Shown piece by piece: positions 35,568 to 40,339 of a stretch of DNA of 64,000 nucleotides. Position numbers and translations under genes: made by a program. Source of the DNA: Bacteroidia bacterium (GTDB lineage Bacteria > Bacteroidota > Bacteroidia > Palsa-965); NCBI GenBank assembly GCA_044344795.1, contig JBIJCF010000002.1:15562-79561 (forward strand), written 5' to 3'. Positions within the stretch are counted from its first letter, which is position 1. Each line of letters begins with the position of its first letter. The notes below the pieces were generated by a model. That model saw nothing but the letters and a program-made list of their open reading frames with translations. It was not told where the DNA came from and searched no databases.

Positions 35568-36017
35568 CTATTTCGTCACATTCCTCTTATAATCTCTTGT
35601 GAGCGATTCCTCTATGACAGGAAGATCATTTAGCAATACCTGATAATTTGCATCAATAGCTTTTATGAGTTCTTTATTCTTGGACGCATTTGTAGTATCG
35701 GTATGCAGTAACTTCATTTTGTGAGCTTTCACAATCTCTTTATGCTTTTTCAAAAGTTCTTGCTGAGCAGTTATTTTAGGCATTACATCAGAACCTGCAG
35801 TTACGCCCATTTCTTTGCCGTATTGCTCCACATTAGCCAAGTGTATGGTCTCTGCTTCCGTAATTTGTTGTTCATACAATTGAATTGCTCTACGAAGTTC
35901 TGTTGCAGTGCCAGCTTCATATTTTGCACGGCTTTCGTGGCAGCCGGAGTATACAATTCCAAAGACTGCCAGAACACCGGCAAGAATGGGGAGGATGTTT
36001 TTGATGAGTGTATTCAT
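35568..36017 (-). CDS. Hypothetical membrane-anchored or periplasmic protein
   Basis: N-terminal hydrophobic anchor followed by a helical charged region. 149 aa. Confidence 0.4.
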   Translation of the reverse strand: MNTLIKNILPILAGVLAVFGIVYSGCHESRAKYEAGTATELRRAIQLYEQQITEAETIHLANVEQYGKEMGVTAGSDVMPKITAQQELLKKHKEIVKAHKMKLLHTDTTNASKNKELIKAIDANYQVLLNDLPVIEESLTRDYKRNVTK

Positions 36018-36252
36018 GGCTTTTAGTGAAGCAAAAGTAATGCATCAAAATCGCGATGAACAAAGAATTAGACGACTGCACTCATGAATCGGATGGAATC
36101 ACTCAAACGGGCGATAAGATAAACATCATGCTTTGTAATGCGCTCAATACCTTTATTGGTAAGGGTTTCAGCGATGAAGTCCGAAGATAAAATTAGTCCA
36201 CAAAAAGAGGAGTTTCGTGGAAGAAAAGCACATGTTCCTCGAGAAATTGATT

Positions 36253-37335
36253 CTAGAAACGATAAAACCAAGTGCACATTGGGAACGGAAACGATTGCGA
36301 GTCATCATCGTTAAACACGGAAACTCCGGACAAAGCAATCTGAAAAGCCTTGCGGTCTGTGGTTTGAAAGCGCATACCTGGCATTACAAAAAGTGCAATG
36401 GATTTTATGGGCTTGCGTTCAACAATAACCTCATAGATACCCGGAGTATTGGTGTTGAAATCGGGTTCGCGAATTACATTGGTTGAAGTGGTGGTAGTAT
36501 TGTAAGAAAACACTCCTATCATGGAATCAAACACAAAACTTGCTTTAGCACTAATTTTAGAAATTCCTGCAATTGAAAAGATGGGACCTTTATAGAATGG
36601 ACTAATTCGTTCTACCATAGGAATCGGGAATGGAATAGATCCCGGATAGTAATAATTGAAGCTTGTGCTATCTACGTAGGTGCCTTCCACGTATTGGAAT
36701 TGTTTTCCTCCTCCTGTTGCGTAAGCGTATCCTGCAGAAAACGTAATGTTTTGCATTCGATTTCCTAAGGTCACGTTGGCAAAATGTAAGCCTCCATAAC
36801 CTCGGAACTGATTCAAATACCCCGAAGTTCCAAGTAATGTACCGACACTAAAATTCAATTTTTCATTCTTCGTAGGAATTGAATATTTCATAGCTAATAC
36901 CAACGGGCTGGCTAACCATGTTGCCATTAGTCCAATCGAAAACCTGTTGTTCACCGCAAAATGAATTTCGGGTCCGTATAGGTTAATTAGCCCATAGTCT
37001 TCGCCTTTCACAATAGGAAGTGCGTTGGTTGTGAAACAATATCGAGTAGTAAACGGCCCGGAATTTTTATATTCTCCATGAACAATTTGCTTTTTATCTT
37101 CCACTTTTTCCATACTTCTGATATCAGATTTCTGGATGTAGATTTTACCGAGTTTCTCGGTTTGAAGCAGTACTTCCCGACCGTCATCACTAAGAATCAC
37201 ACCTATGTATTCCTTCCCGTCATGTTTGGTAATGACATACAGCTGCGTAGAATCGGTATTGGTTTGTGCCTGCAGAATAGATGTTGTTGTGCCGGCAATG
37301 AGCAGCAGAAGAGAGAGAAGTACCTTTTGTAACAT
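36253..37335 (-). CDS. Hypothetical secreted protein, possibly an outer-membrane protein
   Basis: Signal peptide MLQKVLLSLLLLIAGTTTSILQAQ. Beta-rich, ends ...WFYRF. Confidence 0.4.
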   Translation of the reverse strand: MLQKVLLSLLLLIAGTTTSILQAQTNTDSTQLYVITKHDGKEYIGVILSDDGREVLLQTEKLGKIYIQKSDIRSMEKVEDKKQIVHGEYKNSGPFTTRYCFTTNALPIVKGEDYGLINLYGPEIHFAVNNRFSIGLMATWLASPLVLAMKYSIPTKNEKLNFSVGTLLGTSGYLNQFRGYGGLHFANVTLGNRMQNITFSAGYAYATGGGKQFQYVEGTYVDSTSFNYYYPGSIPFPIPMVERISPFYKGPIFSIAGISKISAKASFVFDSMIGVFSYNTTTTSTNVIREPDFNTNTPGIYEVIVERKPIKSIALFVMPGMRFQTTDRKAFQIALSGVSVFNDDDSQSFPFPMCTWFYRF

Positions 37336-37552
37336 TGTTGGTTCGGGGTTAAAATGTAGGACGTTTCAAATTTGTCACTAATTATTAATGGCGGTATTGG
37401 TAACAAATTTAAGGTAATGATCAATTCGTTTCGAGTTGTCGTAAGCGTTATCGATTCTTTTCAACAATATATCAAAGTTATATAATTGTACACGAGACGT
37501 TCGATAAGCGCTGAAGCGCACCCCAACTTCAACACAAGTTTCGCTTGGTACT

Positions 37553-37637
37553 ACAAAAAAAGCCCCATTATTGTGAGGCTTTCGTATCGTGGGAGCAACA
37601 GGATTCGTCCCGATGCTTCGGGACTGTGACCCTCTGC
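37553..37637 (-). repeat. Degenerate direct repeat of the tRNA-Val 3' half (anticodon-stem 3' strand to the 3' end) plus the downstream terminator. The T-arm is interrupted by a ~17-nt hairpin insertion.
   Basis: It aligns with 38041..38112: acaaaaaaagccccattattgtgaggctttcgtatcgtgggagcaacaggattcg vs acaaaaaagccccactatcgtgaggctttcgtatcgtgggagcaacaggattcg, then tgtgaccctctgc is shared. Confidence 0.7.
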
Positions 37638-37725
37638 GTTTGAATAATGATCATACTTTGCCGAAGTATTGTGTATTGGTTGATAACGTTGCGATTAAAT
37701 TATTTGCTTAGGATAGGAGCAATTA

Positions 37726-38001
37726 TCAGCGGAACTTATCCGTGAGCCATCCATGATCATCAATTAATCGTTCTATAAAGTGTCTGGATTTCATCTTTTT
37801 AATGAATCGCTCGGCATTTCTCGCATGAATTCGGTTCGGGAATTCCAACGCAAGTTTCATTTCCCAATCGATAGCTTTTGAAGTATAGGACTTGGCAAAG
37901 AATTGTGTGTTGTGTTGCTTCAATCTTTCCATCACCGAGGCACATTCGCCTACATAAAAGCGATCTAGTTTGCTGCTGGAAATAATGTAAACAAAATGCA
38001 T
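37726..38001 (-). CDS. GIY-YIG nuclease family protein (small, stand-alone)
   Basis: MHFVYIISSSKLDRFYVGECASVMERLKQHN... is the GIY-YIG motif in the form YII/YVG. Start taken at the internal ATG; the track ORF runs into the tRNA. Confidence 0.65.
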   Translation of the reverse strand: MHFVYIISSSKLDRFYVGECASVMERLKQHNTQFFAKSYTSKAIDWEMKLALEFPNRIHARNAERFIKKMKSRHFIERLIDDHGWLTDKFR

Positions 38002-38040
38002 GATTGTTTTTGTTCTGCAATGGACTATGGTAATCTCAAA

Positions 38041-38070
38041 ACAAAAAAGCCCCACTATCGTGAGGCTTTC
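38041..38070 (-). terminator. Rho-independent terminator immediately 3' of tRNA-Val
   Basis: Minus strand reads aaagcctcacgatagtggggcttttttgt. Confidence 0.6.
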
Positions 38071-38076
38071 GTATCG

Positions 38077-38151
38077 TGGGAGCAACAGGATTCGAACCTG
38101 TGACCCTCTGCTTGTAAGGCAGATGCTCTGAACCAGCTGAGCTATGCTCCC
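38077..38151 (-). tRNA. tRNA-Val (anticodon TAC)
   Basis: A 75-nt cloverleaf folded by hand. Acceptor stem gggagca/tgctccc, D-arm gctc..gagc, anticodon stem tctgc/gcaga with loop cTTACaa, and T-arm acagg-ttcgaat-cctgt. No encoded CCA. Confidence 0.85.
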
Positions 38152-38177
38152 AGAACCTAATTAGGTTAAACGGGCTG

Positions 38178-38207
38178 CAAATATATGTGCAATGTTGGTT
38201 TCTGCAA
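38178..38207 (-). promoter_or_regulatory. Putative Bacteroidota sigma-A promoter for the tRNA (TTG-N19-TATATTTG)
   Basis: Minus strand reads ttgcagaaaccaacattgcacaTATATTTG, matching the -33 TTG / -7 TAnnTTTG consensus with 19-nt spacing, about 27 nt upstream of the tRNA 5' end. Confidence 0.4.
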
Positions 38208-38225
38208 AAAAAATGAGAAAAAAAA

Positions 38226-39521
38226 TCAAATTGCCTCTGCAACTACGAAGGTGCTGCCTCCAATATAAACCACATCTTGTGCTGTTGCCGCTGCTTTTGC
38301 GGCCTGTACCGCTTTCTTAACGGAAGGGAAAATCGCCCCTTGTAATCCGGCAGTTTGCGCGTGCTGTTGCAAGTCCGAAGCTTCCATCGCCCTCGGTAAG
38401 TTGGCCTTGCAGAAATAGTAAGTCGCTTTTTTGGGCAACAATTCCAATACCTTACTCGGGTCCTTATCATTTACGACACCCAAAACAATGTGCAACTTTA
38501 GATTTGACGTGTGTTTAAGCTGCTTCACAATTTCGCGAATTCCTCCTTCATTGTGCCCGGTGTCTGCAATTACCAATGGCGATTTGGCTAAAACTTCCCA
38601 ACGTCCGCGAAGTCCGGTCAGCCCGACAACATTGCGCAAACCACTCAATATGGCGTTATCGCTTATGGCATAGCCTAATTCGCGTAACGTGAATATCGCG
38701 TGCAATACGGTGCCATAATTTTTTCGCTGGTAACTTCCTGTCAAACCACCGCGTACGTTTTTTTGCCAAAGTTTACCGTGATCATAAACGGTGAATTTTA
38801 TTTGGGGCGGAAAGTCATTTGTAGGTAGCATTGTCGTAATCCGAACATGTTCATCAGCAAATGAAATGTTAGTCTTCAGTTTTCGTGCGACCGATGTAAA
38901 CACCGATTTAATCTCCTCTTGAGTTTCTCCAATAATGACGGGTACTCCAGATTTAATGATGCCGGCTTTTTCTCCTGCAATTTTTTGTATCGTATTTCCC
39001 AGCAGATTCATGTGATCGTAACTGATGTTCGTGATCACGCTGAGCTCGGGGTGAACAACATTCGTAGAATCTAATCGTCCTCCCAAGCCCGTTTCAATTA
39101 TTGCTATATCAACGTTTTGCGTTGCGAAATAATCGAATGCCAACCCAACGGTCCATTCGAAAAAAGACAGATCCAATTTTTCGAATTTCTTACGGTGATC
39201 TTGCACAAAAGTCGTTACCGCAAGTCGGGGAATCATTTTCCCATTTATTCGAATGCGTTCGCGAAAGTCTTTGAGATGCGGCGAAGTATACAGCCCTGTC
39301 TTGTACCCCGCGGCTTGAAAAATTGCCGCTAACAAATGCGAAGTTGATCCTTTGCCATTAGTGCCGGCAATATGTATGCTTCTGAATTTATGTTCCGGAT
39401 TACCAAGCGACTTACACAAGGCGATGGTATTGGTCAAATCTGCTTTGTAGGCTGCAGGGCCAATGCGCTGAAACATTGGTAATCTGCTATACAAATAATC
39501 GAGGGTTTGTTTGTACGTCAC
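38226..39521 (-). CDS. folC: Bifunctional folylpolyglutamate synthase / dihydrofolate synthase
   Basis: IHIAGTNGKGST (Mur-ligase P-loop). 431 aa. Confidence 0.85.
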   Translation of the reverse strand: MTYKQTLDYLYSRLPMFQRIGPAAYKADLTNTIALCKSLGNPEHKFRSIHIAGTNGKGSTSHLLAAIFQAAGYKTGLYTSPHLKDFRERIRINGKMIPRLAVTTFVQDHRKKFEKLDLSFFEWTVGLAFDYFATQNVDIAIIETGLGGRLDSTNVVHPELSVITNISYDHMNLLGNTIQKIAGEKAGIIKSGVPVIIGETQEEIKSVFTSVARKLKTNISFADEHVRITTMLPTNDFPPQIKFTVYDHGKLWQKNVRGGLTGSYQRKNYGTVLHAIFTLRELGYAISDNAILSGLRNVVGLTGLRGRWEVLAKSPLVIADTGHNEGGIREIVKQLKHTSNLKLHIVLGVVNDKDPSKVLELLPKKATYYFCKANLPRAMEASDLQQHAQTAGLQGAIFPSVKKAVQAAKAAATAQDVVYIGGSTFVVAEAI

Positions 39522-40339
39522 TTCAACGTGAAGTTGATGTCGATAGATAAAATGATAAGATCAGCGCAGGTGTTGTTGGCGCTGAACTTGATCTTGTAAG
39601 CCGATTGTGTCGCAGTTGAACGCAATACAGAATTTAACGTAGTTGTTCCTTGCGGGTTGACTTCTGCCTTCTTTACATTTCCACTTCTGTCTACATATAC
39701 ATTCACCACAACTTTACCTTCTTCTTGAGTCGGATTCAAGATGTCCGGTTTCGATAAAATACTGCGATAACAAGTAGCATTGCCACCACCGGGCCCGCCG
39801 TCTCCTTTGTCACCTCCGTCATTCGGGCCTACACCATCTCCTTTACCGTCTCCTAATCCTCCGGTATACGGACTTCCTTTGCCTTCACCTCCAACTTTAA
39901 TGGAAGCACTTCCTTTATTTTTTTTCCAGTCTTCCATGGCAGCTAAAACATCCGGAGAAAGCGCGTCGTCCCCGTTCGGTTGTGTGCCCGTGTTGGTTGC
40001 TGGATTTGCCGGATCATTGGAGGTCATGGATCCTTGTTGTGGCGGATTGGTTGCTGTGTTAGTAGTTGGATTGTTGTCGTCCGGTTGTCCGGGATCTCCG
40101 GTGTTTCCCTGGGAGCCGCCGCCTTCAACTGCTGCATCGCCTCCAAATCCTTCGTACAATCCGATTTCCAATTCTACTGCTTCCGGATCGGGTGGAATAG
40201 GAGGTAAAGGAGTAACAATTTGTATGAGCCACAAAATCAGAAATAAGATAACGCCCACAGCAATTGCTGTTAACGCGCCAAAAAGTCGCGCGTTACGTTC
40301 GTTTTTCCTTTCCGGAATGGTTATGGCAAACGTGCTCAT
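39518..40339 (-). CDS. TonB-family energy transducer (putative) with a Pro/Gly/Asp-rich spacer
   Basis: N-terminal TM anchor, PPIPPDPE-rich and GDG-rich linker, C-terminal TonB-like domain. It is the third gene of the exbB-exbD-tonB arrangement. Confidence 0.5.
   Translation of the reverse strand: MSTFAITIPERKNERNARLFGALTAIAVGVILFLILWLIQIVTPLPPIPPDPEAVELEIGLYEGFGGDAAVEGGGSQGNTGDPGQPDDNNPTTNTATNPPQQGSMTSNDPANPATNTGTQPNGDDALSPDVLAAMEDWKKNKGSASIKVGGEGKGSPYTGGLGDGKGDGVGPNDGGDKGDGGPGGGNATCYRSILSKPDILNPTQEEGKVVVNVYVDRSGNVKKAEVNPQGTTTLNSVLRSTATQSAYKIKFSANNTCADLIILSIDINFTLK

Follow-up and report, generated by a model that had tools for sequence, protein, structure and literature searches.

A tRNA-linked cassette of Bacteroidota comprising a single-domain GIY-YIG nuclease gene and a palindrome-interrupted partial tRNA copy

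Introduction

Single-domain GIY-YIG nucleases have been tied to short hairpin repeats in the Ssn family (SsnA of Neisseria meningitidis; cd10448), the 94-aa proteins of which bind the NTS/SRM hairpin repeat in single-stranded DNA (ssDNA) only and cut just upstream of the repeat (Chenal et al., Nat Commun 2025, PMC11893778). Hairpin repeats typically stand on either side of the ssn genes, and NTS-ssnA-NTS has been called insertion sequence (IS)-like by the same authors (PMC11893778). A second precedent is SegB of phages T4/T6, a free-standing GIY-YIG homing endonuclease in a tRNA gene cluster that drives recombination-dependent tandem amplification of the tRNA-segB segment via short homology between the tRNA and the nuclease region (PMC13096335). 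Here we report on a locus in a 64,000-nt stretch of a Bacteroidia bacterium genome (contig JBIJCF010000002.1; the whole stretch is termed the window), in which a GIY-YIG nuclease gene is bracketed by a tRNA-Val gene and a partial, palindrome-interrupted copy of that tRNA.

By comparing this locus with its homologues we arrive, with moderate confidence, at a module that would be widespread in Bacteroidota: a promoterless GIY-YIG gene behind a tRNA gene, together with a palindrome-broken partial copy of that tRNA and its terminator, forming a minimal cassette, selfish or semi-domesticated, for which the tRNA supplies both expression and recombination homology. What is new is that a single-domain GIY-YIG nuclease with an associated hairpin lies embedded in a tRNA gene and recombines with it. 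Full-text literature searches, which included the palindrome sequences, returned no description of tRNA-linked GIY-YIG cassettes, and the main text of the Ssn paper mentions neither tRNA genes nor Bacteroidota (PMC11893778).

Results

Layout of the locus

Coordinates are window positions, and all features of the cassette lie on the minus strand; they are listed below in the direction of transcription.

38208-38180, minus strand: promoter-like site of tRNA-Val (promoter scan), with a perfect Bacteroidota -7 motif, TATATTTG, inside it, just 5' of the tRNA
38076..38151, minus strand: intact tRNA-Val(TAC) gene (ARAGORN; Rfam RF00005, 76.2 bits, E=3.9e-16)
38043..38111, minus strand: repeat copy 1, consisting of tRNA positions 41-76, 3' flank and terminator 1 (repeat search, terminator scan)
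38070-38045, minus strand: terminator-like hairpin 1, then a T-run (terminator scan)
38002..38042, minus strand: 41-nt leader from terminator 1 to the ATG, A-rich ahead of the start codon
37726..38001, minus strand: single-domain GIY-YIG nuclease gene, 91 aa plus stop (Pfam PF01541)
37638..37725, minus strand: 88-nt spacer from the stop codon to the partial tRNA copy
37624..37637, minus strand: pseudo-tRNA fragment A, tRNA positions 41-54 (anticodon-stem 3' strand, variable loop, T-stem 5' strand), 14/14 identical
37608..37623, no strand assigned: 16-nt palindrome TCCCGAAGCATCGGGA (minus-strand reading), in place of GTT of the T-loop
37556..37607, minus strand: pseudo-tRNA fragment B, tRNA positions 58-76 with 3' flank and terminator 2, 52 nt, 96 % identical to copy 1
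37583-37558, minus strand: terminator-like hairpin 2, then a T-run (terminator scan)

A preliminary description, made from the sequence alone, had noted an intact tRNA-Val(TAC) gene with its terminator on the minus strand, and on this ARAGORN, Rfam and the terminator scan agree. The tRNA is 100 % identical to that in three of the homologous loci (L026, L031 and L046; loci are numbered L throughout). The direct repeat that was said to run from the anticodon-stem 3' strand through the terminator hairpin was recovered at 37556-37637 in two parts, 37556-37607 matching 38043-38094 (52 nt, 96 %; blastn-short E=1.7e-19 within the window, which rules out a chance origin) and 37624-37637 matching 38098-38111 (14/14), with a start-to-start spacing of 487 nt. 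This second copy had been called degenerate; its T-arm does contain a hairpin, but the tRNA-derived parts are, palindrome aside, 100 % identical to tRNA-Val. Similarly, the hairpin insertion of about 17 nt proved to be 16 nt standing in for GTT of the T-loop, and what had been missed is that it carries a signature conserved in the whole family. As had been stated, the GIY-YIG gene is the sole coding ORF in the 487 bp between the repeats, and there is no integrase.

No further tRNA or GIY-YIG gene was found elsewhere in the window. A scan of 36000-40000 against Rfam at a permissive E-value returned the tRNA and no other RNA family; weak matches to Phe_leader and Chlorobi-1 in this region were rejected as terminator look-alikes. 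A sigma-70 promoter scan is uninformative for Bacteroidota, and the motif TAnnTTTG was sought by eye instead; none is present in the 41-nt leader of the GIY-YIG gene. Upstream, between folC and the tRNA, the window and L026 are 97 % identical, a conservation far above that of other non-coding DNA at the locus.

The nuclease is a compact and intact GIY-YIG protein

The family assignment made by the preliminary description was borne out by a profile search, in which the 91-aa protein matched the Pfam GIY-YIG profile PF01541 with E=5.7e-9 at 36.6 bits (gathering cutoff 22.6). The catalytic residues Y5, Y16, G18, R26 and E64 are intact, and are invariant in alignments of 18 and of 31 homologs; the family motif ERFIKKMKSRxFIE is also intact, its FIKKMKS portion being invariant in homologs. 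An AlphaFold2 (AF2) model with a predicted local distance difference test score (pLDDT) of 93.4 renders the whole 91-aa chain as one GIY-YIG fold, and a separate DNA-binding domain thus appears to be absent, as the modelled catalytic fold fills all 91 aa. The homologs are mostly 91-96 aa long.

In a Foldseek search with the AF2 model the best PDB matches were the UPF0213 protein BH0048, Slx1 and the I-TevI catalytic domain, and profile comparison gave E=4.8e-6 to 1zg2 (BH0048). By sequence and structure, the nearest proteins are therefore the stand-alone GIY-YIG proteins of the UPF0213/YhbQ type (1zg2, BH0048; 1ywl, EF2693) and the nuclease domain of Slx1. These are of similar size and share a conserved C-terminal E..IK..K helix, but the FIKKMKS motif that is invariant in the cassette family is its own. 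To our knowledge, no link of UPF0213, YhbQ or Slx1 to tRNA genes or to such a palindrome has been reported.

At a clustering threshold of 90 % identity the family counts at least 1,395 clusters of proteins, all annotated just as 'GIY-YIG nuclease family protein'. The score against NCBIfam grpIintron_endo was just 18.7 bits (cutoff 56), and the PADLOC and NCBIfam libraries gave no meaningful family for the nuclease; the Pfam and NCBIfam searches returned no HUH family. Homologs were found neither on plasmids (tblastn against 72,556 plasmids) nor in viruses (profile scan of IMG/VR viral contigs), and as such the cassette is not evidently plasmid- or phage-borne. Between the window and its syntenic relative L026, the nuclease gene has a ratio of non-synonymous to synonymous substitution rates (dN/dS) of 0.09 at a dS of 1.57; to judge from this comparison, it is under purifying selection.

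The unit recurs beside tRNA genes across Bacteroidota

Homologous loci were drawn from species-representative genomes (25 loci), and additionally from metagenome and genome contigs. Further GIY-YIG copies beside tRNA genes with a similar repeat were abundant, comprising more than 30 loci at six host tRNA species (Phe-GAA, Leu-TAA, Arg-TCT, Arg-CCT, Val-TAC and Cys-GCA), and in none of these cassettes is an integrase present. In most Flavobacteriaceae the host is Phe-GAA, at a coaX-tRNA-Phe locus that is syntenic. In 32/32 loci with enough flanking sequence, the nuclease gene or gene array has a co-oriented tRNA at its head or, in two lineages, at its tail. Where downstream sequence was available, nearly every locus has, ~5-100 nt 3' of the gene, a palindrome-bearing partial copy of the local tRNA at 90-100 % (usually 95-100 %) identity to that tRNA, and the unit measures 0.38-0.49 kb throughout. 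The absence of a Bacteroidota promoter motif between terminator and ATG, the short gap from tRNA to ATG (usually 44-126 nt) and the universal co-orientation together make expression by read-through probable.

One apparent exception, L005, has 1.4 kb separating tRNA-Phe from the nuclease gene, and this is due to an IS3-family element (orfA, 128 aa; orfB, 300 aa) inserted there at L005:1650-2944. L050 and L052 show the mirror image: a palindrome-disrupted 5' tRNA copy with promoter comes first, then the nuclease gene and finally the intact tRNA. In every case exactly one intact tRNA copy remains. At L049:4527-4600, 0.2 kb downstream of a two-unit nuclease array, a second intact tRNA-Phe was observed, which has its own duplicated promoter region and terminator and no cassette.

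A conserved palindrome interrupts the second tRNA copy

Taken with an outer G-C pair, the palindrome of the window forms an 18-nt hairpin with a 7-bp stem (37607-37624), and folding as ssDNA returns this hairpin as predicted. A single copy of the palindrome core, CCCGA-N4-TCGGG, is present in the 64-kb window, against none in any of 100 shuffles. Across the family the signature is YCCCGA-N4-TCGGGR, which adjoins GIY genes in 25/30 loci; we counted 53 matches in 224 kb of GIY-bearing sequence, as opposed to four loose ones in 83 kb of other loci. The outer pair changes in a compensatory manner, from T-A to C-G. That an unrelated repetitive extragenic palindromic (REP) element had landed here by accident was considered and ruled out by the strict co-occurrence across families and tRNA species.

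The window and L026 are identical over the palindrome (18/18) and 95 % identical over the 82-nt pseudo-tRNA that includes it, against 56 % for the spacer and 67 % for the leader; the 88-nt spacer is saturated with changes and appears to evolve neutrally. Gene conversion from the tRNA can keep the tRNA-derived parts identical but not the palindrome, which must therefore be under selection. Judged by these patterns of conservation, the second tRNA copy is a maintained element and not debris.

The site of the palindrome varies between hosts, being the T-loop in Val, Phe and Cys, the anticodon arm in Arg-TCT, Arg-CCT and Leu, and the junction of T-stem and acceptor in Leu. It is also found in the loop of the duplicated terminator (L001, L009 and L019), and in L018 up to three palindromes occupy one tRNA copy.

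Several individual loci deserve mention here. A nested form, CCCCGA[TCCCGAAGTTTCGGGA]CGGGG, with one palindrome in the loop of another, lies within a third partial tRNA-Cys copy (L052:2500-2545). In the tRNA-Arg(TCT) copy of L022 (3249-3265), arms TCCCGA/TCGGGA surround a 7-nt loop, TTCTTAA, that is similar to the native anticodon loop CTTCTAA, as if the stem alone had been replaced. In a third tRNA-Val(TAC) lineage (L051:1157-1474; protein P0003, 56 % identity), the nuclease ORF has no stop codon of its own and runs 14 codons into the pseudo-tRNA and the palindrome, here slightly degenerate (TCCAGAGACTTCGGGA). Lastly, in L025, a Flavobacterium-like metagenome-assembled genome, the palindrome also occurs away from the nuclease gene (370-700 and 2220-2300), in a composite intergenic repeat of two or three hairpins (...GGGATCACCTTTTTGTCCCGACGCTTCGGGACGCCTGCCAAATCCAATGGTCGGAG...) that is present in at least two copies within 2 kb. 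This suggests that the palindrome has spread in some genomes in the manner of REP elements and bacterial interspersed mosaic elements (BIMEs).

Units form tandem arrays

Tandem arrays were found in seven loci (L004, L009, L013, L016, L023, L024 and L049), with proximal copies 96-98 % identical and distal ones diverged or truncated. Related Flavobacterium genomes, including one complete chromosome, carry one, two, three or four units of 381 nt at a coaX-tRNA-Phe-MFS locus, and these units differ from one another by 0-2 nt of 285; the Flavobacterium chromosome AP027043.1 has a four-unit array. At the Val locus L026 holds 1.38 units, whose repeated 183 nt are 100 % identical and have a period of 483. 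The length of the MEGAHIT k141 contig L029 (1-624) is exactly 483 + 141 nt, and as its two 141-nt ends are identical it represents one complete unit in permuted form; such ends signify a cycle in the assembly graph, from either at least two full tandem units or a free 483-nt circle. L030 (1-597), from a different sample, holds 1.24 units and two palindromes.

Occupied and empty alleles, and the age of the Val cassette

Empty sites were found in relatives, giving two occupied/empty pairs. In the first, L031 is closely related to the window (FolC, 95.6 %; 360-aa neighbour, 96.1 %; flanking DNA, 94 % and 89 %) and presents a clean empty site, in which tRNA-Val and a single terminator are followed by the sequence that in the window comes after terminator 2, so that the window has exactly one extra 487-nt unit. 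In the second, L046 lacks exactly one 483-nt unit relative to L028, with flanks that are 98.5 % identical, and keeps an older remnant that starts inside the palindrome. Breakpoints indeed fall at the palindrome, with a half-palindrome in both L046 and L028, and L006 is truncated at the palindrome position.

In L026 and L051 the Val cassette has its palindrome at the same position as in the window, and the dS of flanking genes between window and L026 (0.65-1.58) spans the value for the nuclease gene; the Val cassette is thus probably old at this locus. The empty site of L031 is most simply explained by precise loss through recombination between the repeats, and a site that was never occupied is possible. 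As for L028, its cassette differs from that of L026 by 1 mismatch in 573 nt (99.8 % identity), yet the two loci agree at just 91.3 % over the downstream flank. Either the unit was recently transferred laterally into a background like that of L046, or the assembly is a chimera joined via a 57-nt shared repeat.

Discussion

Relation to known systems

The resemblance to Ssn is drawn from the described protein size, gene layout and hairpin core. Both systems have a single-domain GIY-YIG protein (91-96 aa here, 94 aa for SsnA) and short hairpin-forming inverted repeats at the gene, which in our tandem arrays stand on both sides, as in NTS-ssnA-NTS. Furthermore, TCCCG-N6-CGGGA here has the same 5-bp arm and spacing as the Neisseria NTS (TCCCG CGMAVG CGGGA), and also fits the inner part of dRS3 (TCCC-N8-GGGA); dispersed intergenic palindrome clusters, as in L025, are a further shared trait. 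There are, however, differences. The full published SRM pattern, HGTCWY..RNCYNB, has no match at the palindromes, and across all loci gave two irrelevant matches, at L013 terminators. The palindromes here are shorter (14-18 nt versus 20-50 nt) and have no constant 5' flank, the gene is embedded in a partial tRNA duplication that is tandemly amplified, and in the window the palindrome is confined to the cassette. A conserved and functionally required GTCA lies 1 nt upstream of the hairpin in the Neisseria NTS (PMC11893778). In the window, the tRNA variable loop and T-stem (37624-37632; minus strand, GGGTCACAG) place GTCA 3 nt upstream of the palindrome, and as Phe cassettes have no equivalent this likeness may be coincidence.

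With SegB the cassette shares a GIY-YIG nuclease gene among or behind tRNA genes and tandem amplification. SegB, however, is a larger phage enzyme that cuts double-stranded DNA, is accompanied by neither a palindrome nor a hairpin-disrupted pseudo-tRNA, and its amplified units bear functional tRNAs and are themselves selected as an anti-defence measure. REP/BIME elements with their RAYT proteins (Y1 HUH), and IS200/IS605, are comparable in tying a small nuclease gene to multiplying, clustered palindromic hairpins, with ssDNA hairpins as the likely substrate. Here, by contrast, the nuclease is a hydrolytic GIY-YIG enzyme and not an HUH enzyme, and without covalent strand-transfer activity any mobility of the cassette would have to use host recombination; moreover, REP elements have no dependence on tRNA. 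Integrative elements that target tRNA genes likewise bracket inserted DNA with direct repeats of the tRNA 3' end and preserve a functional tRNA. Unlike these, the cassette has no integrase, is a unit of 0.38-0.49 kb, has repeats that continue through the terminator and a distal repeat interrupted by a palindrome, and in its mirrored forms duplicates the 5' part of the tRNA.

A proposed mechanism

We propose that the nuclease gene is transcribed by read-through from the tRNA promoter, with a transcript that would end at the duplicated terminator; in the mirrored form, transcription would proceed directly from the duplicated tRNA promoter. By analogy with Ssn and NTS, the nuclease would recognise the palindrome as a hairpin in ssDNA and cut beside it, and the resulting breaks would be repaired from the neighbouring tRNA copy. 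Such repair would keep the repeats identical to the tRNA through gene conversion, let arrays grow and shrink through unequal exchange, and allow units to excise precisely. An excised unit that re-integrates, or incoming DNA that undergoes homologous exchange, could then put the unit behind the same tRNA in other strains, and only products with one intact tRNA would survive. By interrupting homology between the repeats, the palindrome may also slow the loss of units.

A bolder version of this proposal, which we advance tentatively and would not be surprised to see fail, is that the cassette represents an undescribed class of minimal mobile element of Bacteroidota. Three things would come together in a unit of 0.4-0.5 kb that has neither promoter nor recombinase of its own: the gene of an ssDNA nuclease of the Ssn kind, the 16-nt palindrome cognate to it and a segment borrowed from a tRNA gene. 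Expressed by read-through, the unit would spread through host recombination triggered by the nuclease: it would be excised as a small circle, be amplified in tandem, and reach other cells, at the same tRNA, by Campbell-type re-integration or allelic exchange. To the nuclease the palindrome would be a handle, and it would also act as a homology breaker that favours the single-stranded loops of stem-loops, be it a T-loop, an anticodon arm, a terminator loop or another palindrome.

Several observations weigh against the idea of a mobile, tRNA-dependent cassette. Cleavage of the palindrome by this family is argued from analogy, and, as noted, these palindromes lie outside the published SRM pattern. 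Vertical inheritance at its locus seems likely for the Val cassette, which has a dS comparable to that of flanking genes, and the Phe cassette sits at the syntenic coaX-tRNA-Phe locus across Flavobacteriaceae; taken together, long residence accompanied by duplication and deletion on the spot would cover most of the observations with no need for mobility between genomes. The only signal of recent transfer, that of L028, comes from a 1.2-kb metagenome contig of 6x coverage (sample ERZ17175165) that may be a chimera formed via the 57-nt shared repeat. Lastly, the first arrival at a new tRNA species, and the constancy of the palindrome in such differing loops, are both left unexplained by the model.

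Alternative explanations

The alternative that fares best, although we regard it as rather unlikely, is a domesticated host function, in which a housekeeping or defence-related nuclease resides beside a tRNA, the palindrome copy acts as an mRNA 3'-end stabiliser, an operator or a decoy for tRNA-integrating elements, and tandem copies are incidental products of unequal crossing-over. Strong purifying selection on both gene (dN/dS 0.09) and palindrome would be expected of such a function, as would a coaX-tRNA-Phe position conserved across genera of Flavobacteriaceae, a Val cassette with dS similar to its flanks, and the lack of any homolog in phage contigs or plasmids; domestication has also been proposed for NTS-ssnA-NTS by the Ssn authors (PMC11893778). 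A host function is nevertheless hard to reconcile with the clean loss of the unit in the close relatives L031 and L046 with no replacement, with copy numbers of one to four among related strains and frequent pseudogenised copies, or with a host tRNA species that differs by lineage. Likewise, an RNA or operator role leaves unexplained the presence of up to three palindromes per copy, some in terminator loops and one nested, and no Rfam family matches.

Homing by a free-standing endonuclease, which the preliminary description gave as one of two alternatives in speaking of a compact nuclease-driven cassette at the tRNA 3' flank, we consider quite unlikely in its classical form. The enzyme would cut a double-stranded empty site (the tRNA gene or its 3' flank), and repair from an occupied allele would bring in the cassette along with a substitute for the tRNA 3' end, while the end first present would be pushed downstream to become the partial copy. 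In fungal mitochondria, mobile endonuclease ORFs bring a replacement 3' end of their host gene in a similar architecture. What stands of this idea is the tie to the tRNA, the further copies and the occupied and empty alleles among close relatives, with boundaries exactly at the repeat; the catalytic domain is of the GIY-YIG type, as in the phage Seg and I-Tev enzymes, and L028 and L026 have cassettes that agree at 99.8 % in backgrounds that agree at just 91 %. Classical homing into double-stranded DNA, however, fits poorly with a protein of 91-96 aa that has no DNA-binding module. Moreover, intact tRNA and terminator persist beside the gene in every occupied genome and so are not a target on their own, and in L049 an identical tRNA-Phe with terminator stands unoccupied 0.2 kb downstream of two intact nuclease genes. 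The displaced copy should be a diverging relic, yet it is 100 % identical to the local tRNA and kept over long periods, and the conserved palindrome is left with no role. In the window itself the Val cassette appears old (dS 1.57 versus L026), so that the empty site of L031 may equally well have arisen by precise deletion between the repeats.

A classical sign of attL/attR sites is a direct repeat of the 3' portion of a tRNA. The direct repeat at the Val locus is real, but a relic of an integrase-mediated island or prophage in the tRNA-Val 3' end that has lost nearly all of its content, the heavily decayed island of the preliminary description, is highly improbable given that the 487 bp contain a nuclease gene and no recombinase gene or fragment, that more than 30 independent loci are equal in size and content, that the repeats continue beyond the tRNA and across the terminator (in L026 as far as into the nuclease gene) and in two lineages cover the tRNA 5' part and promoter, all of which is atypical of att sites, that the units are tandemly amplified, and that the second tRNA copy is conserved and not decaying.

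Significance

Single-domain GIY-YIG proteins number in the thousands, and their link to hairpin repeats and ssDNA cleavage, through Ssn, dates only from 2025. The loci reported here add a large Bacteroidota branch with a compact nuclease-palindrome-tRNA unit that amplifies, decays and vanishes cleanly. They account for recurrent assembly breaks and pseudo-tRNA fragments beside Bacteroidota tRNA genes, and constitute a source of many natural nuclease/hairpin pairs for ssDNA tools. They can furthermore be used to study how such small proteins find their sites and whether nuclease-induced recombination shapes tRNA loci, and they provide a natural system in which to ask whether Ssn-type nucleases are selfish elements.

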